From an archaeon (lineage in GTDB: Archaea; Iainarchaeota; Iainarchaeia; Iainarchaeales; JBDRCV01): DNA of 33,668 nucleotides. The DNA is taken from positions 1 to 33,668 of the forward strand of contig JBDRCV010000008.1 in assembly GCA_043821385.1 (NCBI GenBank), in the 5' to 3' direction. This document shows positions 1-16,031 of the stretch, one piece after another. The notes beneath the pieces were generated by a model, which saw only the letters and a list, made by a program, of their open reading frames with translations, was not told the DNA's origin and searched no databases. The position numbers and the translations under genes were made by a program. How positions within the stretch are numbered: the first letter of the stretch is position 1; each line of letters begins with the position of its first letter.

Positions 1-656
1 TAAAGAAAACTATTCTGAAAGTCCAAGGAATTCATTAAATCAGCTTCAAAAAAAGTGCTAGTGTTAACTATTGGCAAAAAGAATAACTGGATTGTAATAA
101 TAATTCCAAGAAAAATAAAAAACATTAAATAACTTGAAAACAAAGCACTGAAAGTAACGCTCCTACGCTTTTGCTTTAACCTTTCAATTTCTGTTAAATA
201 ACGAGAAGTAACGTCAAAAACTTTTAACAAACTTCCTCCCTGCTTGTGGCTTTCAGAAATAACCATCACACTTTTTCTAATAATATTGCTTTTGATTTTT
301 CCAAAAACATTAATCATTGCATCCTCAAAAGACACGCCAAGCTTTAATTGTGCTGCAACTTTTCCAACCAAAAACTTTAATTTACCATAATCGTTTCTTG
401 AAACAATAGTCATTGCCTGAACAACACTCATTCCGCCTTGAAGCAAGTCACGCAAGTCATCCAAAAAAGCAGTAAAATTAACTTCATACTCGTGAACCAA
501 AAGCCTTTGCTTGTAATTAGCAATACCAATTAACATTACTATTGGCAGAAAAGATAAAACAGTAAAAGGAGTGCTAAGCAGGAAAATAAAAGTAATTAAT
601 GACAACAATAAACCAGTAATAAAGTACTTGAAATAATAACTTTCAATCAAACTCAT
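1..656 (-). CDS. Type IV filament membrane platform protein, single T2SS-F domain (TadB/GspF/FlaJ-like); 3' end cut by window edge
   Basis: Absent from the ORF track because it runs off the window. My own minus-strand translation from ATG 656-654 stays open to position 1: MSLIESYYFKYFITGLLLSLITF...FTAFLDDLRDLLQGGMSVVQAMTIVSRNDYGKLKFLVGKVAAQLKLGVSFEDAMINVFGK...ESHKQGGSLLKVFDVTSRYLTEIERLKQKRRS... This is TM helices flanking a cytoplasmic helical bundle, as in T2SS-F domains. An AGGTG SD overlaps the upstream stop codon (666-668). Confidence 0.75.
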   Translation of the reverse strand, partial: MSLIESYYFKYFITGLLLSLITFIFLLSTPFTVLSFLPIVMLIGIANYKQRLLVHEYEVNFTAFLDDLRDLLQGGMSVVQAMTIVSRNDYGKLKFLVGKVAAQLKLGVSFEDAMINVFGKIKSNIIRKSVMVISESHKQGGSLLKVFDVTSRYLTEIERLKQKRRSVTFSALFSSYLMFFIFLGIIITIQLFFLPIVNTSTFFEADLMNSLDFQNSFL

Positions 657-665
657 TTCTTACAC

Positions 666-1538
666 CTACATTCCGCCAGGAGACATTATCTCCATTAACA
701 ACAAAAACACTATGTTTAACGCTGGAATTAACAGAAAAATTCCAATAGTTAACAAGAAGTCAATGGTTAAACCAAAAATAGTTCCGCCAAACATTCCCAT
801 TAACATTATTGCAGAAAAAATAAATAATGGTGCCGCAATAACAACTCCAGTATAAATGTCTCCAAAAGTTTCCGCTCTCTGGTTTACTTCATTCATTCTT
901 AAAACGTATTCAAATTGAGCTTTATCAGCACGCTTTTGCATAAACAACCCTAAATCTCCACCTGAAGACATTGAAGCCTTTAACTCAATCAAAAACTTTC
1001 TTAAATCATTTGAAACAGTTAACTTTGCAAGATGAGTAATAGCAGCACTTAAACTTAAACCAAGTTCATCCATAAACCTTTGAACCTTACTTAATTCCCG
1101 GGAAATTACAGGGTATTCTTCTGCTTCACCTAAATTCTGAAACATTGCACTAGGCGGAGTACCAGATTCCACAATAGTTGACATGCTTAAAATAGCTAAA
1201 GCTAGATTGTTTCTAATTACTTGAGCTTTCTTGAAAACCAAATAATAAGGGTAAACAAAAACCAACCCAATAAAACTAATAAGAAAAATAAAAAACAAGC
1301 CAACAAACAACAATAAATCAACTTCAAAATTAATGAAAGCAAAAAGAACAAGAGAAACTAACACGACAAAAAAAGCTGAAACAATTGAAGCCATAAACCC
1401 TAAAGACAAGTACTCTGGCAAACTAATTTCTACGTCAGCGTCAAACAACTTTTTCTCTAACTCTTTAGAGTCAATCAATAAAGCCAAAGGCTTAAAAAAC
1501 GCGAAAGCAATTTTAGCAAGCAAAACATACAATTTCAT
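666..1538 (-). CDS. Type IV filament membrane platform protein, single T2SS-F domain (TadC/FlaJ-like)
   Basis: 290 aa. N-terminal TM helices are followed by a cytoplasmic T2SS-F-like bundle (NNLALAILSMSTIVESGTPPSAMFQNLGEAEEYPVISRELSKVQRFMDELGLSLSAAITHLAKL...SSGGDLGLFMQKRADKAQFEY) and C-terminal TM helices. It lies 10 nt upstream of a second such gene. Confidence 0.8.
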   Translation of the reverse strand: MKLYVLLAKIAFAFFKPLALLIDSKELEKKLFDADVEISLPEYLSLGFMASIVSAFFVVLVSLVLFAFINFEVDLLLFVGLFFIFLISFIGLVFVYPYYLVFKKAQVIRNNLALAILSMSTIVESGTPPSAMFQNLGEAEEYPVISRELSKVQRFMDELGLSLSAAITHLAKLTVSNDLRKFLIELKASMSSGGDLGLFMQKRADKAQFEYVLRMNEVNQRAETFGDIYTGVVIAAPLFIFSAIMLMGMFGGTIFGLTIDFLLTIGIFLLIPALNIVFLLLMEIMSPGGM

Positions 1539-1592
1539 GACAGCAAGAGAAAGTAAAAACTAGTTAAAAAAAGTATGGTTAGAAAGAAAAAA

Positions 1593-2129
1593 CTATTTCT
1601 TAATTAACTTTCTTTTCTCTAAAACTAATTCAAACAATTCTTTTGCGAAATCGTTTTTAATGCGTGCTTTTGCGCTATCATAGAATTCATTTAAATTGAA
1701 TTTATTGTTTTCAGTTTCATACTCTAAAGCCTGTAAAGCCATTTCCAGTTTATCCATATCCCTAACAAAAATTGCTTCAAGAGTTTTTCTTTCTTCAAAC
1801 TCTAACCATAAATCAATTAATTCTTGGTTGTTAGAAAAAAGTTTTTTTAAAGCATTTAACTCTAACTCATGTTGTTTCTCTATAGTAATTCCATCATGAG
1901 GGGTAAGGTCTCCAACAATACTTTCAGCTAAATCATGAATTAAAGCCATTTTAACACATTTTAACTCGTTTAAACCAGCTTTTCTTGCAAGAAGTAAAGT
2001 CATGACTGCCACCCGAAAAGAATGGTCTGCAACGCTTTCAGGATTAGGAATTTTCTTTAAAACCCATCCAGCTCTCTTCAATTTCTTTAATTCCCCAACT
2101 TTATGGAATAATTCAATTAAATCGTTCAT
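1593..2129 (-). CDS. HD-domain phosphohydrolase, YfbR/HDDC2-like 5'-deoxynucleotidase family
   Basis: 178 aa with family motifs LKRAGW, ESVADHSFRVAVMTLLLA and ALIHDLAESIVGDLTPHD. Same strand as its neighbours, 35 nt after the ATPase stop and 54 nt before the platform gene start. Confidence 0.8.
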   Translation of the reverse strand: MNDLIELFHKVGELKKLKRAGWVLKKIPNPESVADHSFRVAVMTLLLARKAGLNELKCVKMALIHDLAESIVGDLTPHDGITIEKQHELELNALKKLFSNNQELIDLWLEFEERKTLEAIFVRDMDKLEMALQALEYETENNKFNLNEFYDSAKARIKNDFAKELFELVLEKRKLIKK

Positions 2130-2164
2130 TAAGGATTCTTCATAAGAAAAAGATTTAAAGGCAT

Positions 2165-4282
2165 CTAAATCAGTTTTTCTTTTTTCTTGTAAGAATTTAA
2201 GTCTTCTTTGAATTCAATAAAGGTTTTTGGAGGGTCTTTAATTAAGCCGTCAAGGAATTGTTTTCTGGATTGAATTACTTCTAATATTCTTTGGTGTGAG
2301 ATACCGTACTCGGCTGAAATTGTTTTCAAAACCAGACTACGGTAAGTTATTGGAAGAAAATCAGTTCCAATTGTTTCGCCTTGGCCTGTAACACTGATTT
2401 CTGTTACTGGTTGTTTTTCCATTGCAGGATTCCATTCAAACAACTTGTTGGTTTCAAGTTTTTGGGTTTCAATGTTAAAACCTTTAACTTCATTTATTGC
2501 CCTAATCCTTCTTTCAATACTGCTGACTCCAGAAAACCCTAATGCAATAATTAAGTCTAGGCTGTTTAACAATGTTGGAGACAAATTAATTGGCGGAGTA
2601 ATTAACCTGTTAACCACGTCATCAACGCTTTTAGCGTGAATAGTTGAAAAACAAGTGTGTCCTGCACTCATTCCCTGAAACATAACGTAAGTTTCATCAC
2701 CTCGAACTTCTCCTACAATTAAGTAATCCGGACGCTGCCTGAAAGACTCTTTAATTAAGTCAATTAAACTTACTTCCCCGTACTTTCTTCCAGAAACATC
2801 TGGTGGACCAAAACCAGGCCTTGAAACTTGAGGTAGCCAGTTATCGTGAACCAAGTTAATTTCTCGAGTGTCTTCAATTGAAACAATTCTTTGAGCTGCA
2901 GGAATAAGCATTCCTAAAACGTTCAATAAAGTTGTTTTTCCTGAAGCAGTCGGCCCAATAATTAAGATTGAACGCTTGAATTCAATTGCCAGCCACAAGT
3001 AAGCTAGAATTTCAGTGTTAAGCATTTTAAATAAAACTAAGTCAATTGGACTAAAAGGAGTTTCAGGAAATTTTCTGATAGTAAAAGTTGGGCCGGAAGT
3101 TGAAATGCTTTCAGTTAAAACAGCGTTAACACGAGAACCATCAGGCAAAACTGCATCCAGTAAAGGCGAAGCAAAAGAAACATAACTCTTGCATAATTGA
3201 GATAACTTAATAATAAAATCCTGTAATTCTTCAATTGAATCAAAAGAAACATTAGTTTGAAGGTTACCGTATTTTCTGTGAACGATAAACAATGGAATGT
3301 TTGTTCCATCACATTCAATGTCTTCAATTAAAGGGTCATGCATTAATGGTTCAACTTTGTTGACTCCATACAAGTCTCTTGAAAGAAAGTAAACGAATTT
3401 TTCTTTTTGTTCGTCACTTAAAGTTAACTTGTTTTTAACTAAAATCTTGCTTAACCTGGTGAAAAGTTTTCCTTTTCCAACCGTACCCAAAGCAACTTCT
3501 TCAATAAACCTGTCTTTCAAAAAACTTAATTGTTTGGCTTCAGTGTCAGACAATAGTGGTTCGTAAACAAAGTATTTTTTGCCTTCCCTGGTTTCTTCCA
3601 CTTGAGCAAAAGCAAACTCTGGCACTAACGTTAAGTATTCTCCCATTGGCTTAAAAGATTTTTCTACTTGTTCTGCAGTACTTTCAAACAAGCTTTCATC
3701 TAAAGCTTCTGGTTTATTAAACATGCTTGGAAACAAGTCATGCAATTGTTCTCTAACGTAATCTTTTACCAGAGTTGAAAGAGACTCTTCACCAAAGTCA
3801 ACTTCAGTAACAGGTTTTTGTAAAACAATTTCTTTTTTGGTTTCTTTTGGAATTTCAATTATTTGCTTTATTTGCTCTTTCTTTAATTTAACTGGTTTTC
3901 TTACTTTAATGTTTGAAACTTTCTTTAAAGAATCCTTTAAATTAAACTTTAAATTACTTAAAGCACTGGCTTTATGGTAGCGCGTGAAAGGAAAAGAATG
4001 CAAGCCAACCGAGTCAGTAAGAGAATTAAAATTACTGGCCAGTCCAAGAAAGTCATTAATTATTTCGTTGTCAATTGTTTTTAATTGTTTTAAAGTATTT
4101 TTTTCTGTTAAAAGTTTCCTGTATTCTTTCCTGAATTCTTTTTCTGAAAGCTTTTTAGTTAAAAGTTTTTTCTCTAAGTCAACTGCCAGCTTGCTTGCCT
4201 GCAATCGTTTTTTCTCTGTTTCCTTAAGCTTTTGAACTTTCTTTTCAAGTTCAAGCATTAATTTAAAGGAAGGGTAAGTCAT
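2165..4282 (-). CDS. Type IV filament assembly ATPase (FlaI/ArlI / PilB / TadA / VirB11 superfamily) with long K/E-rich N-terminal extension
   Basis: 705 aa. Walker A is GPTASGKTT (nt 2931-2957). Other motifs are an Asp box SIEDTREI, Walker B region DYLIVGEVRGDE and a His box GHTCFSTIHA. The first ~210 aa (about nt 3650-4282) are lysine/glutamate-rich predicted coiled coil that I cannot assign to a family. Confidence 0.9.
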   Translation of the reverse strand: MTYPSFKLMLELEKKVQKLKETEKKRLQASKLAVDLEKKLLTKKLSEKEFRKEYRKLLTEKNTLKQLKTIDNEIINDFLGLASNFNSLTDSVGLHSFPFTRYHKASALSNLKFNLKDSLKKVSNIKVRKPVKLKKEQIKQIIEIPKETKKEIVLQKPVTEVDFGEESLSTLVKDYVREQLHDLFPSMFNKPEALDESLFESTAEQVEKSFKPMGEYLTLVPEFAFAQVEETREGKKYFVYEPLLSDTEAKQLSFLKDRFIEEVALGTVGKGKLFTRLSKILVKNKLTLSDEQKEKFVYFLSRDLYGVNKVEPLMHDPLIEDIECDGTNIPLFIVHRKYGNLQTNVSFDSIEELQDFIIKLSQLCKSYVSFASPLLDAVLPDGSRVNAVLTESISTSGPTFTIRKFPETPFSPIDLVLFKMLNTEILAYLWLAIEFKRSILIIGPTASGKTTLLNVLGMLIPAAQRIVSIEDTREINLVHDNWLPQVSRPGFGPPDVSGRKYGEVSLIDLIKESFRQRPDYLIVGEVRGDETYVMFQGMSAGHTCFSTIHAKSVDDVVNRLITPPINLSPTLLNSLDLIIALGFSGVSSIERRIRAINEVKGFNIETQKLETNKLFEWNPAMEKQPVTEISVTGQGETIGTDFLPITYRSLVLKTISAEYGISHQRILEVIQSRKQFLDGLIKDPPKTFIEFKEDLNSYKKKEKLI

Positions 4283-4305
4283 TTAAAACTCCAAAAAAAG
4301 TTATT

Positions 4306-4653
4306 TTATTTTTCTTCCTCTATTTTTCCCAGTCCATCAGAGTCAATTCGAATATTATAAGCATCTTTTATTTCAGTTAAAATGTCAGTTAACTCGTTTA
4401 CAAGCGAAACAATTTCACTCCACTTGTCTTTCTTTGTTTCAATTGCTTTACTTAAACGTTGTTTGCTTGAGTCAACAATTTTTAAATAAGAAAACTTGCT
4501 TATATCTCCGTCATCAAACCTTTTTTTCACTCCTTCACTTTCAGCTTTAATTGCTTGAGCTTCTTTTTCTAAACTCCTTAAAGATTCAACTGCCGCCACT
4601 ACAAGATTTGTTTTGTCCTCGAACTCATCTAATGCTTCAATAACATCCTTCAT
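4306..4653 (-). CDS. Small coiled-coil protein, unknown function (pilus operon member)
   Basis: 115 aa, charged heptad-like sequence with no TM segment. It sits 24 nt upstream of the ATPase gene on the same strand. Coding status is supported by operon context only. Confidence 0.5.
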   Translation of the reverse strand: MKDVIEALDEFEDKTNLVVAAVESLRSLEKEAQAIKAESEGVKKRFDDGDISKFSYLKIVDSSKQRLSKAIETKKDKWSEIVSLVNELTDILTEIKDAYNIRIDSDGLGKIEEEK

Positions 4654-4668
4654 TCATTCACCTCAAAA

Positions 4669-5187
4669 TCATGATTTCCTGATTAAAGAAGTATTACCTT
4701 TAACCAGTTTCAAATACAGTGAAAAATCATTCCCTGCATTATAATCACACTCACAAAGACTAATGTTTACATCATTTAAAAAGATTTCCTTTACCAGAGA
4801 ATTAGCATCAGTCAAGGTTCCCTGACTAACACCATTAAAATAATAACTGCATTCTTTTTGCATGAAGTTGCCTAAAACATAGCCAGCGTTAACATCAAAA
4901 GCAATAAAACAAAAAGAAGGCTCAAAAGCAGAGCGTTGAGCTTGCTCTTTAACCTTTACTCCAAAGTCAAACAAGTTAGAGTTTAAATCAAAAACTATTG
5001 GAATAGTAGTGGCAGAAGACATAGTTGTAAGGTAAACAAAATAAAACTCGTTTGAAAAATTATCTAAAAGAAAATCACTTGAATTAACAGTTGGCTGAAC
5101 GCTAATGTTAGCAGCGAAAAAAAAAGCAATAATTAAGCCAATAAAAATTAAGGCTCCAAGAATAAAAACAAAACCTTTTTCAGCCAT
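4669..5187 (-). CDS. Pilin-like protein with class III (prepilin) signal peptide
   Basis: I prefer the internal ATG at 5187 over the track start at 5244. It gives MAEKG/FVFILGALIFIGLIIAFFFAA, a short charged leader ending in KG followed by a hydrophobic helix, the same 5-residue leader as the three upstream pilins. It also gives an 8-nt overlap (ATGGCTGA) with the preceding gene. The mature part has four Cys. Confidence 0.65.
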   Translation of the reverse strand: MAEKGFVFILGALIFIGLIIAFFFAANISVQPTVNSSDFLLDNFSNEFYFVYLTTMSSATTIPIVFDLNSNLFDFGVKVKEQAQRSAFEPSFCFIAFDVNAGYVLGNFMQKECSYYFNGVSQGTLTDANSLVKEIFLNDVNISLCECDYNAGNDFSLYLKLVKGNTSLIRKS

Positions 5188-5566
5188 AACTCCACCCGTA
5201 AACCTGTAAAACTTTTGGATTGTAAGACAAAACGTTTCCTTCAAACAAGTAATTGACTACCACAGTGTTAGCGTTTGATGGCTTGGAACCATAACAAACA
5301 CCATTACTAACATCCAGTCCCTCACAAACTCTTACTTCTAATCCTAAGTCAATCATTTCCTGTAATTCTTCTTTAATTAAAGATGTTTGATGCAAAGAAA
5401 CTTTTTCCCTGAAATCTTGTTTTAACGCTAGCTCTGAAACCGTGCTCTCAATGCTTTCTTGCAAGGAATTCATTCTTGGAGTTGAAACTAATGAAGCCTG
5501 ACTGACAGTAAAAAAAACTGTAAACAATAACGCTACAGCAATTAATGCTTCAATTACTTTAATCAT
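5180..5566 (-). CDS. Small protein with N-terminal hydrophobic helix (possible minor pilin or signal-anchor protein)
   Basis: 128 aa starting MIKVIEALIAVALLFTVFFTV; there is no [KR]G leader. Its ATG overlaps the giant gene stop (ATGA at 5563-5566), implying translational coupling. Confidence 0.55.
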   Translation of the reverse strand: MIKVIEALIAVALLFTVFFTVSQASLVSTPRMNSLQESIESTVSELALKQDFREKVSLHQTSLIKEELQEMIDLGLEVRVCEGLDVSNGVCYGSKPSNANTVVVNYLFEGNVLSYNPKVLQVYGWSYG

Positions 5567-8500
5567 TTTCTTTGACTCCTGACTTTTAACTCCGAGTACT
5601 TTAATTTGCCGTCAGAGTAAAGGTAAGGAAAAGTTTCACTTTTAACACTTGCAAACCTTTCAGAAATTAAAGAACCATAAGACAAGTTAATGTCTTGTTT
5701 TTCAAACGAAAGCAAGTAATTCAAGTCACTTGAAAAAGCATTAAAGTCTGGAGTAGTAATAACCTTCAAACTTGAAATCAATGGTTTTGTAAGGTAACGA
5801 GTGTTAGTGAAAGTTTTCCCTAGGTTTGAAGGACTGTAACGGAATTTAAGTAAAGCATTAAAAGCACAGCCAATCGTAACGTTTTCATCCAGCCAAACAT
5901 CACAGTCACCGTACTTGGTTTCGTTTCCAACAGTCACAGTTTCAGGGTTTAAGACAGCACGCCTAATAGAAAAATTATCAAACCTTGCCTTGCTTCCCCT
6001 TGTAACTAACCCAATGTCTCCTGGAGGTAAAGGACTTGAATCATTAAAGTCAATCAATAAATTGTTGTCAACAAAAACTTTAATGTTGTTTTCAACCATT
6101 TTCACACTTAACTTATACCAAGTTTGAAAGTTAATGGTTGTTGAATCATTAAAGTCAAGTAATTGGAATTCAAATTGCCCAGGACCAATTTGATTTGATT
6201 TAACTAAAGCAACAGGCAAAGGGTTTGCAGGAGTAGGAGTAGTATAATTTATTTGAGCCACATAAAAAATGTTTCCTTTTCTTTGAAACTTTATTCCAAC
6301 GTTATGGTCTCCTGCAGTAGCATCTGTTTCGTCAATGTAAACGTTTGCATCAACCCAAAAATTGTTGTCTCTGACAAAGTCAACAACTGTTCCTTTTACA
6401 CTAGAAGAATTAACTTGAGTGTACTGCTTGTTAACAATTGCCCAAGAAACGTTTATTTCATCCCAGTCAATTGGGTCACCATCATCTTCATTACCATCAT
6501 CAAAGTTATCAAACGCAACCAAGGCTTTTAAAGCATTTGAATCAAAAACCGCATTACTTTTACCGTAAGCTATAGCATAATCTCTTGAAGTAGTATTAGC
6601 TGGAAGGCTTCTTTGAAGTTTAAAGAAAACATTAGAGTCAACAGAATTACAATCCATTACAATAGTATCAAGCAAACTATTACCTTTTAAGTCAAAAACT
6701 TTAACGTCATTACAGTCACTTAAAACTTTTCCTGCAGCAATCAAGGACTGCGTGTCAAAACCAACCCTGACAGAATAATTAACGTCTAATGATTCAATTG
6801 AAGAAGAAACAATTAAAGGTTTCTTGAAAGAGTAGCCAAGGTTAACCCAAGACGAATTGTTTTCATCCTCTCTCATTAAATCAATTGTTAAAGTAGTGTT
6901 GTCATCTAAAGAATTATGCAAGATTAACTGGTTTGAAGTCAAATAATTGTTGTTAGAATTGTTGTCTTGAATTAAACCATTAATAGTTGAAAAATTGCTT
7001 AATGACTGGAAATTAAATTTTGTTGGATAAGAAATTTCTAACTTGTTTTGGTCTCTTGCAACATCAAAGTAAACAAAATAATTCCTGATTTTTCTGTCAG
7101 AAGAATTCACGTCAACTAAAATGTTTAAGTCTCCAATTTTAGTTGAAGAATTGAAAGAGAATTGTGACGGCACTGACGAACAAGTGTTTGGCGAAAGCTT
7201 GTTAGCATCAAGACAAAACATTTTTCTGTCAAGACTTGAAACATTAAAGTCATCAATTGAAACTCTTGTTATAACAGTGTCAAAAGCAATAAATTTGCCA
7301 GTGCGTAATGGCACGGAATCCTGCCAGCTGCCAAGATAAGTTCCGTCACGCCACACTTTAATTAACCCGTCAGTAATTGTAATCCTGTAAAAATACTGGG
7401 TTCCAGCAATTGCAGCAGCAGCAATAATTGATTGCTCTGCTTTAACGTCATTTGAAACCTTTAAAATTGTAAGACTGTCAGCGTTCTGGTCAACAATGTA
7501 AGCGCTGTGCCCAAACCTTTTAAGAGAGTCTTGAAGGTGAGAGTAAACCATTGCATGCGTGTTAGAATCAAACTTCATTGTAAACTGTAAGTCAATGTTA
7601 GAGTGAGGAAGGTAAACGAAAGCATTAGAGTTATCATCTAAATCGCCTTGCTTTAACATTTCGTTTTCAATAAACCAGTTACCGTCACGAAAAACCCAGC
7701 CGTTAGCATCATTAAAATTATCTGTAAATTGGTCAGAATACTCTACTACTCTAATAGAGTTAGCGTCTAAAGCCCTTGAATCTGAAACCCTGCTTAAAGC
7801 TTTAGAGAAATCAATTTTAGTTTCAGCTAAAAAGTTTTGGTCAATTGTTCCAGTGTTCACACTTACAGGTAACCTGTAAAGCCATTCATTGTACAATGGC
7901 ATAACGTTAACGTCAGCAACAACTAACTGTGACTCTATTGCCCTTAAACCAATTCCACCCTTGTTTACTCCTGGATTAAAACCAGAGTCAGTTGAATCAA
8001 TATCCCAAGAACTTGACTCTGAGTCAATTGAACGCCAAACCCTAAATTTAATTGCATCTTTATCCAAATAAATTTTAGCATTATACCAAGAATTTAAAAC
8101 CATTGTCTTGTCAGCTGACGCAATAAGAGTGTAAACACCATTAACATACCTTCTGATTTCAAGGTTTCTGGAAGCTGGTTCAGGTGAAACCACAAAAGCC
8201 AAAAAGTTTTTTGAGTCAATGTAACGAACCAAAAACTCTACTTGTTTTTGGCCAACGTTTGCAACCTTGAACTTTGTCTTAAAAACATAATTAGAGTAAT
8301 TAATGTCTTCAATTGTTGCAGTATGATTTGTGTCAGTAGCTAACTCAAAATAATTACTGTCAAGCACTTGCCAGTTGCCTGAAACCTCGTTCCAGTCACC
8401 AGGATAACCATCATTAGCGTTATTGTCTTCAAACGCGTCAAAGAAAATACTGTCAGTCCACCAGTTCGCACTAAAAGTTATGCCGTTGTCATCCTTGCTT

Positions 8501-11500
8501 TGCCAGTTGTTAAACAAGGTTGGAGTAATTTCAATGTTGTTGTCTTGAGGTAACTGTAACCAGAATTCCGGTGAGTGAGAAAAGAACCTGAAAGCATAAT
8601 TAGAGTCATTTAGTTTAGCAGAAAATAAAGAGTTATCGTCTATATTAAAACTTTGAGTTAAAGGACTCCATAAAATTAATTCATTGCTTAAAGAATTTTT
8701 CAAGTAATTAATTTGAAGGTTTAAATCTAAAACGTTTATGTCAAAGAATTCATTACTAACAGTATAATCTGAACCATTTACAGCTAAATCCAAGTCAAGG
8801 CTTTTTGAAACTTTTAAGTCATCAAACAATACTTTTGACTCAATGGTTTCAAAACCAACCCCACCAGAAACAAAACTTGAATCAGTTGCAGTAACCAACT
8901 CATTGTCATCAAAAAAACAACTAATGCTTGAACTAACAGCTTTAGCTTTCAATGAATGCCAGCCATTAAAATCAAAACTTGCAAGACTAACCGGATTAGT
9001 TTCAGAACCATAATTAACTGAAACAAAATCAAGCAATGGAGTAATGTTGTTGTCAGAAGTTTCAAAAAACGCTTTAAACTGCAAGTAACGATTATTAGTT
9101 AAATTCAAATCAATAACATTAGCATCATAATAATAAGTGTTAATTGAACCATCAGGGCCAGCATAAGCAGGCCAACTAGCATTATCAGCATCAGTTCTAA
9201 ACTGGAATTTAATGTCTGCTTTTGAAGCTTGATAATGGTTCCAAATTTCTTTACCAGTTAATTCTTTTGAATAAAACTTTAAGTCATCAATTACTCCATG
9301 AAAGTTATCAGTGTTACCTCCCCAAGTAGCACCAACACCCATATCATAATTTGAACAAGTTGAAGGAACAACTGCAACAGAAGGAGTGCCGGATTGAACA
9401 ACACTTGCTTCAACTCCATTAATGTAAAGTTTTATTACTCCACCAACACTATCATAAGTTCCAGCAAGAAAATTCCACTTATTAACATCAAGCTTTTTAG
9501 ATGAACCAACCCAAACATCTGCGACCCCTGCACCTGAACTCACAACCCAGTAAACGTTTGAATCATTCTGCAAGTACAAGAAAGTGTGGTCTGTTTGATC
9601 ATAAATCATTCTCCACTCCCTGTTTCCCGGGTCAGTCCAAGAAGCATCAAAAGATTTAATCCAAACTTCAAAAGAAAACTCTGCACCGCCAAGAAAATCA
9701 TAACAAGACATAAAGTTATCGTCACCATCAAACATTAAACCAGAACTGATTCCATTCCTTCCAGTAACCCAAGTAGGCTTGTTAGCTGGATTACCTGTAC
9801 CACCAAGATTTCCTGTTCTAGCATTAAAACCAGCATCCTTACTTGTCACTCCAGTATTTTCATCAAAACGATAAAAAGCTATAAAGTTTTCATCAAAAAC
9901 ATCTGCCTGCCCGTAAAGATACCATTCATTAAAATCAAGAGTATTCCAAGTAACACCAGCAGTCCCAGAATCAAGTACAGTGGATTCAAGGTAACCAGAT
10001 TGACGCCAATTAAACGTAGTGTTAACGTCCTTGAATTCACTTACTCCGTTAACGTCAATTCTTTTATGAGCGTTCTGGTCTTCAATTACAAAAGTTTGCT
10101 TGTCAAAAAAAGTAACGTTAACGTCATACAAGCCATTATAATCCACACCACAATGAATGTCATTAGAACTGCCTTTCTCATAAACATCTCTAGAACAAAC
10201 CAAATTTGACTGCTGGTCAAAAACCCTAACTTTAGCACCCAAATCATGGTTTAAATCACCTAAACCAAGATCATTTTGATCTAACCTTACAACTAAATAA
10301 TTTAAGTCATCTCTAGAATTCCTGTAAAAATAATTATTGTTTCCTCCAACAAACAAGTCTAAATCGCCGTCATTATCATAATCTCCCCAAGCAAACGCGG
10401 CACCCTTGTTAGCACTTGAAATGCCAACCAAAGAACTAACATCAGTGAAAACATCACTGCCATCATTCCTCCATAACGCGTCCTTTTTTCCAACAACTAA
10501 ATCCAAGTCACCGTCATTATCATAATCGCCCCACGCACACTCTAAATAATTCCAAGCAGTCAAAGCTTTAACGTTAGTGAAAGACAATCCACCATCATTC
10601 CTAAAAATATTCGTGTTACCATAAGCAGCTAAACCAACATCAATATCCCCATCATTATCATAGTCACCCCAGCAAGCATCAGTTGCTGCAGCATTAAACT
10701 TTATCGGGTTAGTGATTTCAACAAAAGTTCCATTATCATTCCTAAAAAGCCTGTTAGTATTACTAACCCAGATTGGCAGAAAAATATCCATGTCGCCATC
10801 AGAATCAATGTCAACAAAACTAACTTCATAAGAAACATTACCATCATTTAAACCAACATGCTCTGCAGTAACATCAGAAAATTCTCCATTCAAGTCATTC
10901 CTAAACAACTGGTTTGGAGTATTAGCATTGTCACCAGTTAAATACAAATCAATATCTCCATCATTATCATAATCCCCCCAAGCCGCAGCACGATTATAGT
11001 TAGCTGTCTGACCGCCAACTTTTGCAGTACCAGTAACTTCAGTAAAAGTACTGTCACCATTATTTCGGAAAAGCTTGTTTGCAGCACCACGAATAATTAA
11101 ATACACGTCCTGATCCCCGTCATTATCATAATCAACCCAGTTAGCTTCCTGACCACCTTGAGCATTAGCAAGCCCAGCACTCACAGCAATATTAGTGAAA
11201 TTAAAGTTACCGTCATTCCTGTAAAGTTCGTCAGCTCTACCACCATAAACTACATGCAAATCTAAATCCCCGTCATTATCAAAGTCAACCCAGTTAACGC
11301 CTTGCTGCATTCCATTCTTGTTAGCCGCTTTAATGTTAACTCCAGCACCAATCGCTGTTTCCTCAAAATTACCATCCACATCCAATCCAAGCATTGCAGA
11401 ATCCTTAAAAACAACTAAATTCAAGTTAACGTCAGTGTCAGCTTCAAAGTCAGCGAACTCATCTTGAGTTAAGTCACCTGAAACACCACGAAAATTACTT

Positions 11501-12198
11501 TTCACTCCACCAGAATATTTTACTAAATCATACTCTAAAGCATTATTAATTTCACAAGCATAATAATTGCTTGAATCCTGCAAACGAAAAACAAGCCCTA
11601 AACCATTAACGTCAACAGTGTTAGGCTTAAAAATAGTTTCAACAAACAAGTCACTCCAATCACCATTAACATAACTTAAACCGTTAACATCAGAGTTAGA
11701 CTGAAAATAATAACGATTGCTTGCAGTCCAAGAACCAGAACTCTCAACCCAAGTCAAAGGTTTTGAATCATTGATTGCTTCATCTTCAAAGTTTTCCATT
11801 ACATCAACTACTCCGTCCTGCGAGAAAGCTAAAAGATTAGAATCCAAGAAAAACAATTGAGTTAAATTATCTCTGGTTGGATCAATCAAAGAATACAAGG
11901 AATTGCTTACAATTGAATAATACTGGTTTGAAACAATGTTATCATCACTGCCAAAAGATAACTGCACAGGGTAAAAAGCATTACAATCGTAAATAGAATT
12001 GTTACAGTAAGGAGCTAAATTCAACTGGTAAACGTTAGCCTTAACCGGCACGTCCTGAAAAGCCTGAATGTAAAGCGATTCAGTTAAAGCAACATCAAAA
12101 GATTGTCGTTCAGGAAGAAACTGCGGTAAAGCAATCAAAACAAACACTACAGCAAACAAAAAAATCATACTGCCAACAACCCAATCAATATAATGCAC
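5563..12198 (-). CDS. Giant (2211 aa) membrane-anchored extracellular protein: FG-GAP beta-propeller + ASPIC/UnbV-like + LamG + multiple concanavalin/DUF1080-like jelly-rolls; putative pilus-associated adhesin
   Basis: Uninterrupted 6.6-kb ORF. A GTG start at 12198 lies 8 nt after an AGGAGGG SD (12207-12213). The N-terminal hydrophobic helix is WVVGSMIFLFAVVFVLIAL. Seven FG-GAP/VCBS repeats (W[GV]DYDNDGD[LI]DL...[LF]FRNDG) are followed by an ASPIC-like segment. A LamG (Laminin_G_3-like) domain ends in HGVIDDLKFYSKELTGKEIW (9241-9300). At least four jelly-roll units end in ...FDDLKV, ...VADVNV, ...IDDFNV and ...FDNFSI. N-x-S/T sequons are numerous. Confidence 0.85.
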   Translation of the reverse strand: MHYIDWVVGSMIFLFAVVFVLIALPQFLPERQSFDVALTESLYIQAFQDVPVKANVYQLNLAPYCNNSIYDCNAFYPVQLSFGSDDNIVSNQYYSIVSNSLYSLIDPTRDNLTQLFFLDSNLLAFSQDGVVDVMENFEDEAINDSKPLTWVESSGSWTASNRYYFQSNSDVNGLSYVNGDWSDLFVETIFKPNTVDVNGLGLVFRLQDSSNYYACEINNALEYDLVKYSGGVKSNFRGVSGDLTQDEFADFEADTDVNLNLVVFKDSAMLGLDVDGNFEETAIGAGVNIKAANKNGMQQGVNWVDFDNDGDLDLHVVYGGRADELYRNDGNFNFTNIAVSAGLANAQGGQEANWVDYDNDGDQDVYLIIRGAANKLFRNNGDSTFTEVTGTAKVGGQTANYNRAAAWGDYDNDGDIDLYLTGDNANTPNQLFRNDLNGEFSDVTAEHVGLNDGNVSYEVSFVDIDSDGDMDIFLPIWVSNTNRLFRNDNGTFVEITNPIKFNAAATDACWGDYDNDGDIDVGLAAYGNTNIFRNDGGLSFTNVKALTAWNYLECAWGDYDNDGDLDLVVGKKDALWRNDGSDVFTDVSSLVGISSANKGAAFAWGDYDNDGDLDLFVGGNNNYFYRNSRDDLNYLVVRLDQNDLGLGDLNHDLGAKVRVFDQQSNLVCSRDVYEKGSSNDIHCGVDYNGLYDVNVTFFDKQTFVIEDQNAHKRIDVNGVSEFKDVNTTFNWRQSGYLESTVLDSGTAGVTWNTLDFNEWYLYGQADVFDENFIAFYRFDENTGVTSKDAGFNARTGNLGGTGNPANKPTWVTGRNGISSGLMFDGDDNFMSCYDFLGGAEFSFEVWIKSFDASWTDPGNREWRMIYDQTDHTFLYLQNDSNVYWVVSSGAGVADVWVGSSKKLDVNKWNFLAGTYDSVGGVIKLYINGVEASVVQSGTPSVAVVPSTCSNYDMGVGATWGGNTDNFHGVIDDLKFYSKELTGKEIWNHYQASKADIKFQFRTDADNASWPAYAGPDGSINTYYYDANVIDLNLTNNRYLQFKAFFETSDNNITPLLDFVSVNYGSETNPVSLASFDFNGWHSLKAKAVSSSISCFFDDNELVTATDSSFVSGGVGFETIESKVLFDDLKVSKSLDLDLAVNGSDYTVSNEFFDINVLDLNLQINYLKNSLSNELILWSPLTQSFNIDDNSLFSAKLNDSNYAFRFFSHSPEFWLQLPQDNNIEITPTLFNNWQSKDDNGITFSANWWTDSIFFDAFEDNNANDGYPGDWNEVSGNWQVLDSNYFELATDTNHTATIEDINYSNYVFKTKFKVANVGQKQVEFLVRYIDSKNFLAFVVSPEPASRNLEIRRYVNGVYTLIASADKTMVLNSWYNAKIYLDKDAIKFRVWRSIDSESSSWDIDSTDSGFNPGVNKGGIGLRAIESQLVVADVNVMPLYNEWLYRLPVSVNTGTIDQNFLAETKIDFSKALSRVSDSRALDANSIRVVEYSDQFTDNFNDANGWVFRDGNWFIENEMLKQGDLDDNSNAFVYLPHSNIDLQFTMKFDSNTHAMVYSHLQDSLKRFGHSAYIVDQNADSLTILKVSNDVKAEQSIIAAAAIAGTQYFYRITITDGLIKVWRDGTYLGSWQDSVPLRTGKFIAFDTVITRVSIDDFNVSSLDRKMFCLDANKLSPNTCSSVPSQFSFNSSTKIGDLNILVDVNSSDRKIRNYFVYFDVARDQNKLEISYPTKFNFQSLSNFSTINGLIQDNNSNNNYLTSNQLILHNSLDDNTTLTIDLMREDENNSSWVNLGYSFKKPLIVSSSIESLDVNYSVRVGFDTQSLIAAGKVLSDCNDVKVFDLKGNSLLDTIVMDCNSVDSNVFFKLQRSLPANTTSRDYAIAYGKSNAVFDSNALKALVAFDNFDDGNEDDGDPIDWDEINVSWAIVNKQYTQVNSSSVKGTVVDFVRDNNFWVDANVYIDETDATAGDHNVGIKFQRKGNIFYVAQINYTTPTPANPLPVALVKSNQIGPGQFEFQLLDFNDSTTINFQTWYKLSVKMVENNIKVFVDNNLLIDFNDSSPLPPGDIGLVTRGSKARFDNFSIRRAVLNPETVTVGNETKYGDCDVWLDENVTIGCAFNALLKFRYSPSNLGKTFTNTRYLTKPLISSLKVITTPDFNAFSSDLNYLLSFEKQDINLSYGSLISERFASVKSETFPYLYSDGKLKYSELKVRSQRK
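10340..11300 (-). repeat. Seven tandem coding repeats (FG-GAP blades) inside the giant gene
   Basis: The plus-strand DNA motif CC(A/G)TCATTATCATA(A/G)TC...CCCCA recurs near 11271, 11120, 10960, 10795, 10650, 10510 and 10370. The period is about 140-160 nt and each copy encodes D(N/S)DGD calcium-loop motifs. Confidence 0.75.
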
Positions 12199-12242
12199 TT
12201 TAAATACCCTCCTTTAAAAGAATAATTAAACTAATTATTAAA

Positions 12243-12761
12243 TTAACTGTAAGACGGTTTTTGCACTCTGATTTTAATTGTTTTAATTCCCCCGCTAAAA
12301 GAATTGTAATCAGCAAACAAAACATGTTGTCCTGAAAAAACCATTAAATTAGAGTCAGTTAAAATGTTAATGTCAGAACCAGTGAAATTGAGTCCGATTG
12401 AAAGCTGGTTGCCTGAACGAGAGTAAAAAATTCTTCCAACTACAGCAGAATAATTTTCGTCAATGATTTCACTTGAAACATGCTGTTTTAAAGTAATTGA
12501 ATCAGTATCAGAGTTAATGTCAATAAAACCATTCCTTAACTCAAATGAAACGCTTTTAGAGCTGCCGACACTTAAGTCTGCAACGTCTGTAATCACGGAA
12601 TTAATTTCAGTTACCAAGTCTTTTGCGTGCTCAAAGTCTCGAACATCATTCAATTTCTCAAAGTAAGGCAAGGCCAAAAAAGCAATAGAGAAAACAATAA
12701 TAACACTTAAAACAAACATGAATACAGCAATAACCAACTGGTTTACTCCTTTTTCATTCAA
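12243..12761 (-). CDS. Archaeal type IV pilin (class III signal peptide), paralog 3
   Basis: 172 aa starting (M)NEKG/VNQLVIAVFMFVLSVIIVFSIAFLA. The start must be TTG at 12761 (no in-frame ATG precedes the helix), overlapping the upstream stop as TTGA. It shares internal blocks with the other two paralogs (SVSFELRNGFIDINSDTDSITL; LSIGLNFTGSDINIL). Confidence 0.8.
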   Translation of the reverse strand: MNEKGVNQLVIAVFMFVLSVIIVFSIAFLALPYFEKLNDVRDFEHAKDLVTEINSVITDVADLSVGSSKSVSFELRNGFIDINSDTDSITLKQHVSSEIIDENYSAVVGRIFYSRSGNQLSIGLNFTGSDINILTDSNLMVFSGQHVLFADYNSFSGGIKTIKIRVQKPSYS

Positions 12762-13264
12762 GTCTTTCTCACTCTCACTAACGCCTTACTAGTTACCGAA
12801 TTAAAACCATTATAGTCAAGAATGATGTGATTGAATCCAGGAAACAAAGAAATGTTGTCGTCTAAAATTAAATCAACTCCCAAAGCATTAAAGTCAACAC
12901 TTAAAACAGCAAAATTGTCTGAAACACTTACAGAAAAGTTTTCATCAGAGAAAGTTGAATTGTTTGCAAGAAAACCTTCACCAACATTAATTTTGCTTGA
13001 CATGGTTTCAATGTCAGCATTAAAGTCAATTGAAAAATCCCTGAAAGTTAAATCTAATTGCTTGCTGGAAGAAGGCATTGACGCAACAGACAAAACCTCA
13101 ACTTTAATTAACTGTAAAGTATTTTTAGAGTTCTGGAATTCCGGAAGTTTCTGCCATTCCTGCACTTGATACAAGCCTTGAGTTAAAACAATTGAAATTA
13201 AAACAACAGCAAGAATTAACAAAAGCAATCCAGAAAAAATTGCCGAAACACCTTTATTATACAT
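12758..13264 (-). CDS. Archaeal type IV pilin (class III signal peptide), paralog 2
   Basis: 168 aa starting MYNKG/VSAIFSGLLLLILAVVLISIVL. A GGAGGA SD lies inside the end of the upstream gene. Paralog blocks are QLDLTFRDFSIDFNADIETM and LSVDFNALGVDLIL. Confidence 0.8.
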   Translation of the reverse strand: MYNKGVSAIFSGLLLLILAVVLISIVLTQGLYQVQEWQKLPEFQNSKNTLQLIKVEVLSVASMPSSSKQLDLTFRDFSIDFNADIETMSSKINVGEGFLANNSTFSDENFSVSVSDNFAVLSVDFNALGVDLILDDNISLFPGFNHIILDYNGFNSVTSKALVRVRKT

Positions 13265-13272
13265 AATAAACT

Positions 13273-13776
13273 TTATCCTCCAATCCTCTTAACGCTAACC
13301 CAAACAATTCCAGGCTGACTTCTTTCCTTTTTTACCACTAACTCATGCAATCCCTTGTTTAAAAACAAGTTGTTATCAAACCCAATAACAGAGTTAGAGT
13401 AATCCAAACCCAAAGTTAAACGATTACCAGTCCTTGAAATAAAAAAGTTTGTTTCACTATAATTAGAGTCAATGTCAAAATAACCCGCATTAATGTAATG
13501 ATGCAAGACTACAAGATTGTAATCAGAGTCAACGTTTAAATCAAAGTCCCTTAAATCAATTGAAATTAATTTGCTTGAACCACTTTCAAGCAATGAAACT
13601 TCATTAATGTTTTCCTCTAACCCGCGCAAAATGTTTGCAGCAATTTCAAAGTCAATAGTGTTCTGTGTTTCCTCCAAAAAAGGAAAACCAATCTGCGTTG
13701 CAACAGCAATCGAAACAACCGCAATAAATAACAACAACAAACTTGAAAGAAAAACATTAACTCCTCGCTCTAACAT
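13273..13776 (-). CDS. Archaeal type IV pilin (class III signal peptide), paralog 1 (first gene of operon)
   Basis: 167 aa starting MLERG/VNVFLSSLLLLFIAVVSIAVA. Paralog blocks are LISIDLRDFDLNVDSDYNLVVL and LTLGLDYSNSVIGF. Confidence 0.8.
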   Translation of the reverse strand: MLERGVNVFLSSLLLLFIAVVSIAVATQIGFPFLEETQNTIDFEIAANILRGLEENINEVSLLESGSSKLISIDLRDFDLNVDSDYNLVVLHHYINAGYFDIDSNYSETNFFISRTGNRLTLGLDYSNSVIGFDNNLFLNKGLHELVVKKERSQPGIVWVSVKRIGG

Positions 13777-13798
13777 GCAATAAAAAAGGTTAAAGTTG

Positions 13799-13806
13799 TT
13801 TTAAAT
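13799..13806 (-). promoter_or_regulatory. Candidate TATA box for the pilus operon (leaderless-type spacing)
   Basis: The minus strand reads ATTTAAAA, centred about 26 nt upstream of the ATG at 13776, in the 72-nt divergent intergenic region. No SD is present, which fits a leaderless first gene. Confidence 0.3.
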
Positions 13807-14433: not shown

Positions 14434-14541
14434 GATTATAAAAAACATTCTTTTTTGGAAAAAACAAAGGCTTTTTAAACTAAAACAAGCTTAAATTATA
14501 ATAGATTTTTGTTAGAATTTAATATAATTATTGGTGGTAAA

Positions 14542-14988
14542 ATGAGTGAAAAAGAAGTAAAAGAAAAAGTTATAGAAGTTAAAGAAGAAGATAAAAAAGA
14601 AGTTAAAGAAGAAATTAAAGAAGAAGACATTGATGACTTGGAAGACGAAAAAACTGACGAATTAGTTGTAGAGGAAGGGTTTGCTTTCCCTAAAACAACT
14701 GTTGTAAGGTTAATGAGGAAGCATCTGGAACCAGGAAAACAAATTAAAGGAATAGTTAAAAGAGAAATGAATAAATGGATGGAAAAAATGGTTGTCAGAG
14801 TTACAAGCAAAATGAACGAACACCCTTACACTTACGTTGACTACGGAATGTTCAAAGAAGCAATTGAAACATACGAAAAAATTGAAGACATTGAACAAGA
14901 AAAAATAAGAATTATTAAGTACTTGGAAAAAATTAAAGCAGACTGCGATAGTCTAGCTAGAGACGTTGACAGAAAATTTGAAGTCTGA
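14542..14988 (+). CDS. Small histone-fold-like protein with acidic/lysine-rich N-terminal tail (tentative)
   Basis: ATG at 14542 follows a GGTGG SD (14533-14537); the track start at 14509 has none. The core FPKTTVVRLMRKHLEPGKQIKGIVKREMNKWMEKMVVRVTSKMNEHPYTYVDYGMFKEAIETY reads as helix-loop-long helix-loop-helix, like a histone fold (alpha1-L1-alpha2-L2-alpha3). It is preceded by about 45 residues of K/E/D-rich sequence. Confidence 0.3.
   Translation: MSEKEVKEKVIEVKEEDKKEVKEEIKEEDIDDLEDEKTDELVVEEGFAFPKTTVVRLMRKHLEPGKQIKGIVKREMNKWMEKMVVRVTSKMNEHPYTYVDYGMFKEAIETYEKIEDIEQEKIRIIKYLEKIKADCDSLARDVDRKFEV
14925..14988 (+). repeat. Direct repeat copy 1 (64 bp) = 3' end of the histone-fold-like gene including its TGA
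   Basis: GGAAAAAATTAAAGCAGACTGCGATAGTCTAGCTAGAGACGTTGACAGAAAATTTGAAGTCTGA matches 15968-16031 at 62 of 64 positions (mismatches at 14934 and 14953). Confidence 0.9.
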
Positions 14989-15656: not shown

Positions 15657-15660
15657 TAAA

Positions 15661-15978: not shown

Positions 15979-16031
15979 AAGCAGACTGCGATAGTTTAGC
16001 TAGAGACGTTGACAGAAAATTTGAAGTCTGA
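15968..16031 (+). repeat. Direct repeat copy 2 (64 bp), orphan duplicate of a gene 3' end
   Basis: See copy 1. Sequence identity stops exactly after the TGA in both copies. Confidence 0.9.

Follow-up and report, generated by a model that had tools for sequence, protein, structure and literature searches.

Large adhesin-like proteins have been placed beside archaeal type IV pili before. In archaeal pilus loci that have a pair of TadC genes, Makarova, Koonin and Albers (2016) noted large DUF2341 proteins, for which they suggested a role as PilY-like tip adhesins; they also connected transglutaminase-family surface peptidases with archaeal type IV pilus loci (PMC4858521). Golyshina (2017) observed a linkage between LamG jelly-roll proteins and the type IV pilus loci of a DPANN archaeon in culture (PMC5498576), and the catalogue of Sivabalasarma and Albers (2026) contains DPANN loci that have two platform genes, large adhesin-like proteins and pilin-like proteins lacking class III motifs (bioRxiv 10.64898/2026.04.22.720090). 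In M. maripaludis, the major pilin is encoded apart, and the signal-peptide proteins MMP0235 and MMP0238 have been suggested as possible tip adhesins (PMC4187195). For bacteria, Raynaud et al. (2021) set out the concepts of the modular pilin and the ‘carrier module’ (PMC8179133). Here we analyse a gene cluster on an archaeal contig of 33,668 nucleotides (nt) (JBDRCV010000008.1 of assembly GCA_043821385.1; the whole stretch is called the window below), in which eleven consecutive minus-strand genes include one for a protein of 2,211 residues, referred to here as the giant. A sequence-only reading of the window had held that no characterised archaeal pilus has such a composition, which was overstated, as three of these reports (PMC4858521, PMC5498576 and bioRxiv 10.64898/2026.04.22.720090) describe such loci. 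Because of them and of the work of Raynaud et al., the general composition, a pilus locus with a large adhesin-like protein, is already known, and the giant is an extreme version of a layout that has been noted.

The cluster very probably encodes a type IV filament with an integral adhesin-like component. Its ATPase is recognised by the Pfam T2SSE model (E 8.6e-32) and its two platform proteins by T2SSF (E 3.4e-12 for the first and 1.4e-20 for the second, which is cut by the contig end). We judged the affiliation of the ATPase from model scores and matches to the PDB, where A. fulgidus GspE (2OAP) comes first with 318 bits (E 8e-94), followed by S. acidocaldarius FlaI with 219 and CpaF with 134 bits. 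On the NCBIfam TadA model it scores 153 bits. It carries a Lys/Glu-rich N-terminal extension of ~230 residues that is kept in its closest relatives, which are 43-52% identical over the full length. Identity to the window ATPase is 41-52% for DPANN archaea (Woese-, Pace-, Nano-, Micr-, Aenigmat-, Undin- and Iainarchaeota), 36% for Thermococcus, 31-36% for Methanobacteriaceae and 30-39% for bacterial CpaF-like proteins.

The cluster probably belongs to a non-motile type IV filament, an adhesive pilus, and does not encode an archaellum, as had been proposed from the sequence alone. A divergent archaellum might be considered, as many homologs of the ATPase have been named ‘FlaI’ by Joint Genome Institute (JGI) pipelines and the top NCBIfam model for the protein is that of the archaellum motor ATPase. 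However, the score on that model (ArlI, NF058587) is 329 bits, under the cut-off of 550, and the non-archaellar GspE of A. fulgidus outscores FlaI. The platform is split over two genes, on which the ArlJ models reach at most 80 bits against cut-offs of 400-570. Among window open reading frames (ORFs) of at least 80 residues, the range covered by our searches for archaellum, chemotaxis and peptidase genes, none matched archaellin (Arch_flagellin), KaiC-like/ArlH, ArlF, ArlG, ArlC-E, ArlX or che genes, in agreement with the absence of archaellum accessory and chemotaxis genes claimed earlier. We consider a motility organelle extremely improbable.

The giant is integral to this operon, as had also been suggested. 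We fetched the neighbourhoods of ATPase homologs and of large-protein homologs (numbered with the prefix L) and compared all of their ORFs with the window proteins. A scan of genomes with the single ATPase gave 2 loci and one with an alignment-based ATPase profile gave 80; with a word-indexed protein search, the large-protein family gained 12 relatives and the pilin family 5, and local profile searches on the fetched loci were more informative. A recurring block emerged in seven related lineages, consisting of a large protein, in some loci a protein of ~305-330 residues, then p128, p191/p172, the coiled-coil protein and the ATPase (L006/L008, L009, L012, L094, L096 and L097, with L011 sharing the C-terminal module only). 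In L011 and L003, two T2SSF genes follow the block, as they do in the window; the platform proteins of L003 are 52% identical to the 290-residue protein and, for a 269-residue ortholog, 51% identical to the truncated half. The soluble 115-residue protein, which has no hydrophobic segment and only weak matches, all to coiled-coil families, is matched by homologs in the equivalent slot of 8 related loci (BLASTP E 1e-12 to 1e-22).

At the slot of the giant, these relatives encode proteins of 514, 658, 661, 966 (with Laminin_G_3) or 1,096 residues (with DUF2341), which begin with M[DE]Y[IV]DW[IV]..S and finish with a common module of ~120 residues. The giant aligns with them over residues 1-220 and ~2090-2205, and a 1,321-residue protein of L011, which has a Sec-type signal, ends in the same C-terminal module (BLASTP E 1e-10). 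Residues M1, Y3, I4, D5 and W6 are at least 90% conserved in the family, against a mean column identity of 28%. A profile search of 1.84 billion representative proteins returned 48 matches, ~27 of them true members, with lengths of 380-1,096 residues, so that the giant of the window is the longest family member by a factor of two. DUF2341 is above threshold in the orthologs P0128/P0129, in the L012 protein and in L104. The extra gene for ~305-330 residues that lies between the large protein and p128 in Iainarchaeal-type relatives (L009 7659-8645; L006 7756-8739; L012 7533-8525; L094 4180-5094; L096 10249-11175) encodes an N-terminus of the RRG/GRG type. The window does not have this gene; on the opposite strand, a Sec61-beta gene occupies that spot.

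On this comparison, the giant is to be read as a conserved operon member whose middle has expanded, not as a foreign insertion. An unrelated recent arrival that came to lie in a pilus operon by chance might be suspected from three features: the giant takes up half of the operon length, its central region has a slightly higher G+C (0.365-0.369; ~0.33 for the contig), and a neighbouring gene, the HD hydrolase discussed below, does resemble an insertion. Orthologs with the same termini nevertheless occupy the same slot in every related locus examined, contrary to the possibility that relatives never carry such a gene. The giant also has a 4-nt stop/start overlap with p128 and a strong Shine-Dalgarno motif, and another large secreted protein of the contig has similar or higher G+C. 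Chance insertion thus has very little in its favour.

The identified modules of the giant, within a protein of ~10 modules in total, can all be assigned by similarity to carbohydrate- or ligand-binding folds. FG-GAP_3 matches the whole protein with E 1.5e-37 and, in six stretches, the isolated segment with E 7.6e-46. At the DNA level, the region holds seven repeats (10344-11292) spaced by 138-162 nt, the only DNA repeats inside the giant. Its nearest solved sequence is CRTAC1 (9ETN, E 5e-6), and the seven-repeat region is probably a beta-propeller. It lies near the N-terminus and is FG-GAP/CRTAC1-like; no Pfam match to a PilY1-type C-terminal beta-propeller was found in the giant. The concanavalin A-like Laminin_G_3 module follows (E 7.8e-19 on the whole protein, 3.8e-20 on the segment), then a partial DUF1080-like copy near residues 1060-1135 and the jelly-roll region. 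The jelly-roll copies are related to each other by internal phmmer searches (E 1e-6 to 1e-8) and match Pfam 3keto-disac_hyd (E 4e-11). A DUF2341 match falls just under its cut-off (2.3e-4; 22.0 bits against 23.4). The protein contains 34 N-X-S/T sequons. Two further ideas were considered and rejected. There is neither a reverse transcriptase nor a template/variable repeat pair, as would mark the target of a diversity-generating retroelement, and no BLASTP similarity to other large proteins of the contig points to domain exchange with them.

The probable relationship of the giant to pilin-like proteins lies at its N-terminus. Proteins of ~240 residues encoded directly upstream of the p128 family in Woesearchaeota (L099 and L102) begin with MNKKG/LSYIDWSIS, that is, with a class III leader (KKG) followed by the YIDW motif of the giant family. 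A profile of the giant-family N-terminus matches these proteins with E 5.5e-4 and 2.2e-3 in a set of 1,675 ORFs, and an iterated search between the two reaches E 1e-10 to 1e-12. When LSYID is aligned with MHYID, Met1 of the giant falls on mature position +1 and its Asp on +5; when WIRIVEA is aligned with MIKVIEA, p128 likewise starts at +1 and has its Glu at +6. The N-terminal helices of p128 and the giant are without a [KR]G motif. The reading frame of the giant is closed by a TAA at 12214-12216, 15 nt before the GTG, which leaves no room for a leader or a longer N-terminus, and the leaderless starts of both proteins are kept in all Iainarchaeal-type relatives. Homology of the giant to the leader-bearing proteins is probable, and it gains weight from the conserved adjacency to p128. 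As the giant and p128 start at mature +1, a prepilin peptidase would not be needed for them.

The remaining small pilin-like proteins have class III-type N-termini. PilA, PilB and PilC share 24-29% identity (E 1e-9 to 1e-21; PilB with PilA 27%, E 5e-9; PilC with PilA 29%, E 2e-21), and their N-termini follow the class III-type pattern M..[KR]G/V before a strongly hydrophobic stretch; in these three and p172, the hydrophobic segment after M..[KR]G is 19 residues or longer. Searches of the six small proteins gave weak, below-threshold matches to DUF7289 (E 0.0066 and 0.0045) and DUF7287 (E 0.011). The match of PilC to DUF7289 (E 0.0066) recurs as the same weak match in its L011 homolog, and a literature search found no mention of DUF7289 or DUF7287. 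The best AlphaFold2 model of PilA, with a predicted local distance difference test (pLDDT) score of 80, has a helix over residues 2-61 followed by a beta-sandwich, giving the ‘lollipop’ shape of a pilin.

From the gene content, homologies, synteny and N-terminal motifs observed in the cluster, we propose a model where a T2SSE ATPase with a coiled-coil N-terminal extension, together with its small coiled-coil partner, would act on a platform of two half-size T2SSF proteins. Four pilin-like families would accompany this motor, namely PilA/B/C, p172, p128 and the giant. The giant would be a hypertrophied pilin-like component that has kept its helix (MHYIDW..., Asp5) and the ~120-residue C-terminal module and has acquired other modules between them. 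With p128, p172 and one or more PilA-type subunits it may form a priming complex on the platform, and a filament growing beneath this complex would carry it to the tip. There, the lectin/propeller array could be presented as an adhesin that binds glycans on another cell or a polymeric substrate. The assembly order, the tip location and the ligand are inferred by analogy with bacterial minor-pilin/PilY1 and GspH-K complexes. We put the probability that the giant is a filament-borne, probably tip-located adhesin at roughly 55%. The proposal made from the sequence alone, a pilus adhesin for cell-cell or host attachment, holds as far as a pilus with an integral adhesin is concerned; a ligand on a host or another cell is only one option, and a polysaccharide substrate is equally possible, since the domains of the giant are of carbohydrate-binding types.

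A bolder extension of this model, which we advance as tentative, is that two pilus subunit families of Iainarchaeota have lost their class III leaders and that a 2,211-residue ‘megapilin’ enters the priming complex without a peptidase and caps the filament. If this is true, the giant would greatly exceed every known pilin-type subunit in size and would follow a peptidase-independent route into a type IV filament. Leader loss in two families, if real, also has consequences for the question of how type IV filaments admit their subunits.

Several results weigh against a filament-borne giant and against the pilin assignments on which it depends. The placement of the giant in the filament is itself an inference, and we know of no pilin shown to be incorporated into a filament that approaches a subunit of 2,211 residues. 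The similarity between the giant and the leader-bearing proteins is confined to ~35-55 N-terminal residues at modest E-values, and the reverse profile, from the ~240-residue family to the giant, is not significant (E 0.13). Profile hidden Markov models, suggested in the sequence-only reading as a check of both machinery and pilins, identified T2SSE and T2SSF; no Pfam or NCBIfam pilin model, Pilin_N included, came above threshold on the small proteins. Four of the five PilA models are of low confidence (pLDDT 39-50), and a Foldseek search of the best one against the PDB gave only insignificant Ig-like matches (best E 0.027). No ORF of the 33.7-kb contig has a Peptidase_A24-type match, so that the prepilin peptidase, for which a search of the contig had been suggested, is missing there, although it may lie elsewhere in the genome. 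Finally, the three paralogs had been called major pilins, a role that is unproven: most DPANN relatives have just one gene of this family, placed beside the ATPase, and also encode other pilins of the Pilin_N type, for which reasons the major pilin could be encoded elsewhere, as in M. maripaludis.

Some of the same evidence would fit a surface lectin, envelope protein or pilus-base component that sits beside the pilus and is anchored in the membrane by its uncleaved helix, in the manner of FlaF/FlaG, stator proteins of the archaellum, or of the bitopic alignment proteins found in bacterial pili. We give this possibility about one chance in four. The giant has neither class III leader nor [KR]G motif. 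In an AlphaFold2 model of the 514-residue minimal homolog, built from the family alignment (pLDDT 81, predicted template modelling score 0.78), the helix spans only residues 3-27, ~25 residues, before a low-confidence linker and all-beta domains. Foldseek matches these domains to concanavalin A-like jelly rolls (E 5e-7 to 1e-4), among them botulinum neurotoxin receptor-binding domains, tandem galectin-8, laminin LG4-5 and CBM66. The model has no classical pilin alpha-beta roll and no solved pilin was among the matches, which also counts against a pilin-like giant. Large neighbours in L011, L100, L103 and L109, moreover, carry ordinary Sec-type signal peptides. A plain signal-anchor would, however, be unusual in having the extreme N-terminus as the most conserved part of the family. 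In pilin-like proteins that do carry a leader and lie at the corresponding operon position, the mature end matches this N-terminus, p128 shows the same leader loss, and the stop codon of the giant overlaps the start of a pilin-like gene; these points favour the filament-borne adhesin.

The carbohydrate-binding character of the giant also allows a short bindosome-like pseudopilus that displays its modules to capture polysaccharide for feeding, which we regard as rather unlikely. All identifiable domains are of glycan-binding types (LamG, DUF1080/3-keto-disaccharide-hydrolase-like and CBM66-like), the same contig encodes a secreted PcRGLX-like/GH127-like enzyme of 1,582 residues, and a pilin of a relative bears a BD-FAE esterase module. 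Class III-signal substrate-binding proteins have in addition been proposed to functionalise archaeal type IV filament machineries (bioRxiv 10.64898/2026.04.22.720090). Yet the ATPase scores only 184 bits on the BasE model (cut-off 1,000), the BasF model of the bindosome reaches 31 bits against a cut-off of 1,300, and no ABC transporter or solute-binding protein was found in the window, let alone linked to the operon. Imaging of ultrasmall cells from groundwater has shown pilus-like appendages in contact with host cells (PMC7906910). A bindosome-like structure would differ from the tip adhesin that we favour mainly in ligand and filament length.

The layout of the operon agrees with the eleven packed minus-strand genes reported from the sequence alone; the ORF listing places all of them within 1-13776, at the same coordinates, and no intergenic spacer exceeds 54 nt. 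The pilB stop and pilC start share four nucleotides (TTGA, 12758-12761), the stop codon of the giant and the ATG of p128 share ATGA (5563-5566), and p128 and p172 share eight, ATGGCTGA (5180-5187). These three junctions are as given before; the two platform genes are 9 nt apart (657-665) rather than 10. The start of p172 is counted from the ATG that gives MAEKG, the mechanical ORF extending to a TTG at 5244. Most internal genes have a Shine-Dalgarno-like motif ahead of them, including AGGAGG 8 nt before the GTG of the giant. Comparison of upstream motifs gave none for pilA, the first gene, and this, together with a TATA-like TTTAAA box, suggests a leaderless archaeal transcript, the box acting as a putative promoter. 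All coordinates are collected in Table 1.

Table 1. Features of the pilus operon and of the giant protein in the 33,668-nt window (aa, amino acids; a slash marks the end of a class III-type leader).
Feature	Position	Strand	Length	Description
TATA-like box TTTAAA	13801-13806	-		~25 nt upstream of the first ATG (pilA); putative promoter
PilA-like pilin	13273-13776	-	167 aa	N-terminus MLERG/VNV, class III-type signal; motif and hydrophobic helix
PilB-like pilin paralog	12758-13264	-	168 aa	N-terminus MYNKG/VSA
PilC-like pilin paralog	12243-12761	-	172 aa	TTG start; N-terminus MNEKG/VNQ
Giant, putative pilin-like adhesin	5563-12198	-	2,211 aa	GTG start; FG-GAP/LamG/jelly-roll
Giant: N-terminal hydrophobic helix	12118-12198	-		MHYIDWVVGSMIFLF...; starts MHYIDW, Asp at position 5
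Giant: further jelly-roll copy	11299-11811	-		aa 130-300; the family's own
Giant: FG-GAP region	10279-11298	-		~aa 301-640; Pfam FG-GAP_3
Giant: Laminin_G_3	9244-9690	-		aa 837-985; concanavalin A-like lectin
Giant: jelly-roll region	5944-8451	-		3 paralogous DUF1080/3-keto-disaccharide-hydrolase-like copies: aa 1250-1430, 1488-1650, 1890-2085
Giant: DUF2341	within 5944-8451	-		aa 1828-1913; just under cut-off
Giant: C-terminal module	5566-5931	-		aa ~2090-2211; aligned in all family members
p128, small pilin-like	5180-5566	-	128 aa	MIKVIEAL..., Glu6; leader peptide absent
p172, small pilin-like	4669-5187	-	172 aa	class III-type signal MAEKG/FVF
Coiled-coil protein, soluble	4306-4653	-	115 aa	immediately upstream of the ATPase
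Secretion ATPase	2165-4282	-	705 aa	T2SSE
HD_3 / YfbR-like hydrolase	1593-2129	-	178 aa	Pfam HD_3 2.8e-44
Platform protein, first half	666-1538	-	290 aa	single T2SSF domain
Platform protein, second half	1-656	-	218 aa	single T2SSF domain; C-terminus cut by contig end

One gene of the cluster does not appear to belong. The HD hydrolase, counted earlier among the operon components, lies between ATPase and platform genes on the present contig only, and no homolog was found in any of ~60 related loci. A TTTAAA box of its own stands ~25 nt ahead of the gene, a Shine-Dalgarno motif is absent, and oligo-T runs follow downstream. Given its absence from related loci, its TATA-like box and the T-runs, it is probably an independently transcribed local passenger. 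A role as a conserved signalling part of the machine was rejected, the gene being missing from all related loci.

Beyond the Iainarchaeal-type relatives, non-iterated profiles detect the PilA/B/C (PIL), p172 (p191) and p128 families in many DPANN loci, with alignments that reach well past the N-terminal helix and with fixed family positions around the ATPase. E-values go down to 4e-8 for p172 and, with most of the length aligned, to 2e-10 for p128 in Woese-, Pace-, Nano- and Aenigmatarchaeota. A typical Nanoarchaeia-type locus runs from a large secreted protein through a p172-like protein, three to four small pilins, a PilA-like protein, the ATPase, two T2SSF proteins and the ~240-residue protein to a p128-like protein. 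Class III N-termini in these relatives read KRG/QVWVET (Glu5) for PilA-like, KRG/QFY for p172-like and KRG/WIRIVEA for p128-like proteins.

Binding modules recur in such loci. A 450-residue PilA-family pilin with a class III signal has a C-terminal Laminin_G_3 module (L119, 3267-4619; E 1e-14), and another of 631 residues with a canonical class III signal has a BD-FAE esterase module (L113, 3338-5233; E 3e-52) and would be an enzyme-bearing pilin. A 1,843-residue protein adjoining a p172-like gene carries two LamG modules, a beta-helix and 3keto-disac_hyd (L100); one of 1,256 residues adjoining the ATPase carries two LamG, two DUF2341 and CARDB (L104). In L003, the locus with the closest ATPase, a 1,021-residue beta-propeller protein has a Pilin_N-type N-terminus. 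Judged from these examples, large ligand-binding proteins are a regular feature of this pilus class. Two observations concern the fetched loci themselves. Archaeal thermosome or ATPase contigs are labelled as Patescibacteria, Acidobacteriota, Pseudomonadota and Campylobacterales metagenome-assembled genomes (MAGs) in L024, L066, L089 and L101, which are probably mis-binned DPANN contigs. L112 has identical genes (820-1242 and 9553-9975) at both ends of an 11,993-nt contig, pointing to a circular element or to duplication during assembly.

The remainder of the window encodes archaeal housekeeping functions (a thermosome subunit, NMD3, a beta-CASP nuclease and tRNA-Arg). The thermosome is 70-74% identical to those of Candidatus Iainarchaeum MAGs and 56-66% identical to other DPANN or euryarchaeal sequences. 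By this identity the contig is assigned to an uncultured DPANN archaeon of the Iainarchaeota (Diapherotrites), which bears out the small-genome host supposed from the sequence alone.

Several other genes of the window encode predicted exported proteins. A secreted transglutaminase-like protein with a lipobox-like LILISGC N-terminus (16665-17732, minus strand) lies 2.9 kb upstream of the pilus operon. The 1,582-residue protein (24079-28827, plus strand) combines a Sec-type signal with PcRGLX-like domains, fn3 and a GH127-like region; as a probable polysaccharide-active enzyme, it hints at a glycan-degrading lifestyle. An 817-residue protein (30703-33156, plus strand) with an N-terminal signal peptide, a C-terminal transmembrane helix and a basic tail, without a Pfam match, is a candidate S-layer or surface protein. 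Separately, a 65-nt direct repeat, 97% identical between 14924-14988 and 15967-16031, flanks a 1,043-nt segment with ORFs 15129-15656 and 15631-15978 (RHH/UPF0175-type). The segment looks like an inserted toxin-antitoxin-like cassette that has duplicated the 3' end of ORF 14509-14988.

DPANN archaea are considered to rely on contacts to other cells. To our knowledge, none of the large DUF2341/LamG proteins of their pilus loci has been studied experimentally. Pilus-like appendages have been seen bridging ultrasmall cells to their hosts (PMC7906910), and the locus and protein family described here provide a concrete candidate for the molecules of such contact. Four pilin-like families would be arranged around one ATPase, with one of them serving as a scaffold that receives lectin, propeller or enzyme modules by lineage. 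The motif M[DEH]Y[IV]DW and the C-terminal module may be used to find such adhesins in metagenomes, where plain domain searches report them only as generic FG-GAP or LamG proteins.

Among known systems, clades 1 and 2 of Makarova 2016 and systems 1, 2 and 4A of Sivabalasarma 2026 are alike in having an ATPase with two TadC-like platform genes, a number of pilin-like genes of which some lack class III motifs, a large protein of the DUF2341/LamG type, with DUF2341 just under its cut-off in the giant, and a transglutaminase-like surface protein nearby. The window differs from them in that its small proteins match no Pfam or NCBIfam pilin model, the locus has no EppA-type peptidase, and its large protein has 2,211 residues and a leaderless pilin-like N-terminal helix. 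The Epd pilus of M. maripaludis (mmp0231-0241 with mmp0038-0040) shares a single-unit multi-gene locus, minor pilins, a split platform and one ATPase. In Methanococcus, however, ATPase/platform genes and major pilin are in separate loci and a dedicated EppA is encoded in the locus; no such nine-transmembrane-helix EppA peptidase of the Epd type or clade 1 was found on the contig. The ATPase of the window is also closer to DPANN sequences (41-52% identity) than to those of Methanobacteriaceae (31-36%), which are in the same ATPase clade as the Epd system (PMC4858521). Candidatus Mancarchaeum acidiphilum Mia14 is likewise a DPANN archaeon without an archaellum, whose pilus loci are linked to LamG-like proteins with a proposed role in host contact. 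It belongs to another phylum, the Micrarchaeota, its proteins are much smaller and are not shown to be embedded in an operon in the same way, and its description contains no analysis of N-termini or of a conserved carrier module.

The bacterial minor-pilin/PilY1 and GspH-I-J-K complexes resemble the cluster in organisation, with about four low-abundance pilin-like proteins and a large adhesin in the same operon, a conserved ‘carrier’ part joined to variable ligand-binding modules, and a priming complex at the tip. No sequence or fold relationship to the window proteins was detected; in PilY1 the propeller is C-terminal and a pilin helix is lacking, and bacterial minor pilins all retain their leaders. 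The modular pilins PilB (vWA) and PilC (concanavalin A-like lectin) of Streptococcus sanguinis share with the giant an N-terminal helix, of pilin type in PilB and PilC and probably pilin-like in the giant, as well as grafted modules and proposed exposure at the tip. In contrast to the giant, they have a canonical class III signal, a recognisable pilin module and one or a few modules, and the most extreme example in the survey of modular pilins has 860 residues (PMC8179133). The giant has ~10 modules in 2,211 residues, is leaderless, and holds its variable modules between conserved N- and C-terminal parts. Against this background, what appears new is a defined family with conserved N- and C-terminal modules around variable inserts, the extreme size of its member in the window, the probable derivation of the family from a leader-bearing pilin-like protein of ~240 residues, and an apparently coordinated leader loss in two subunit families.

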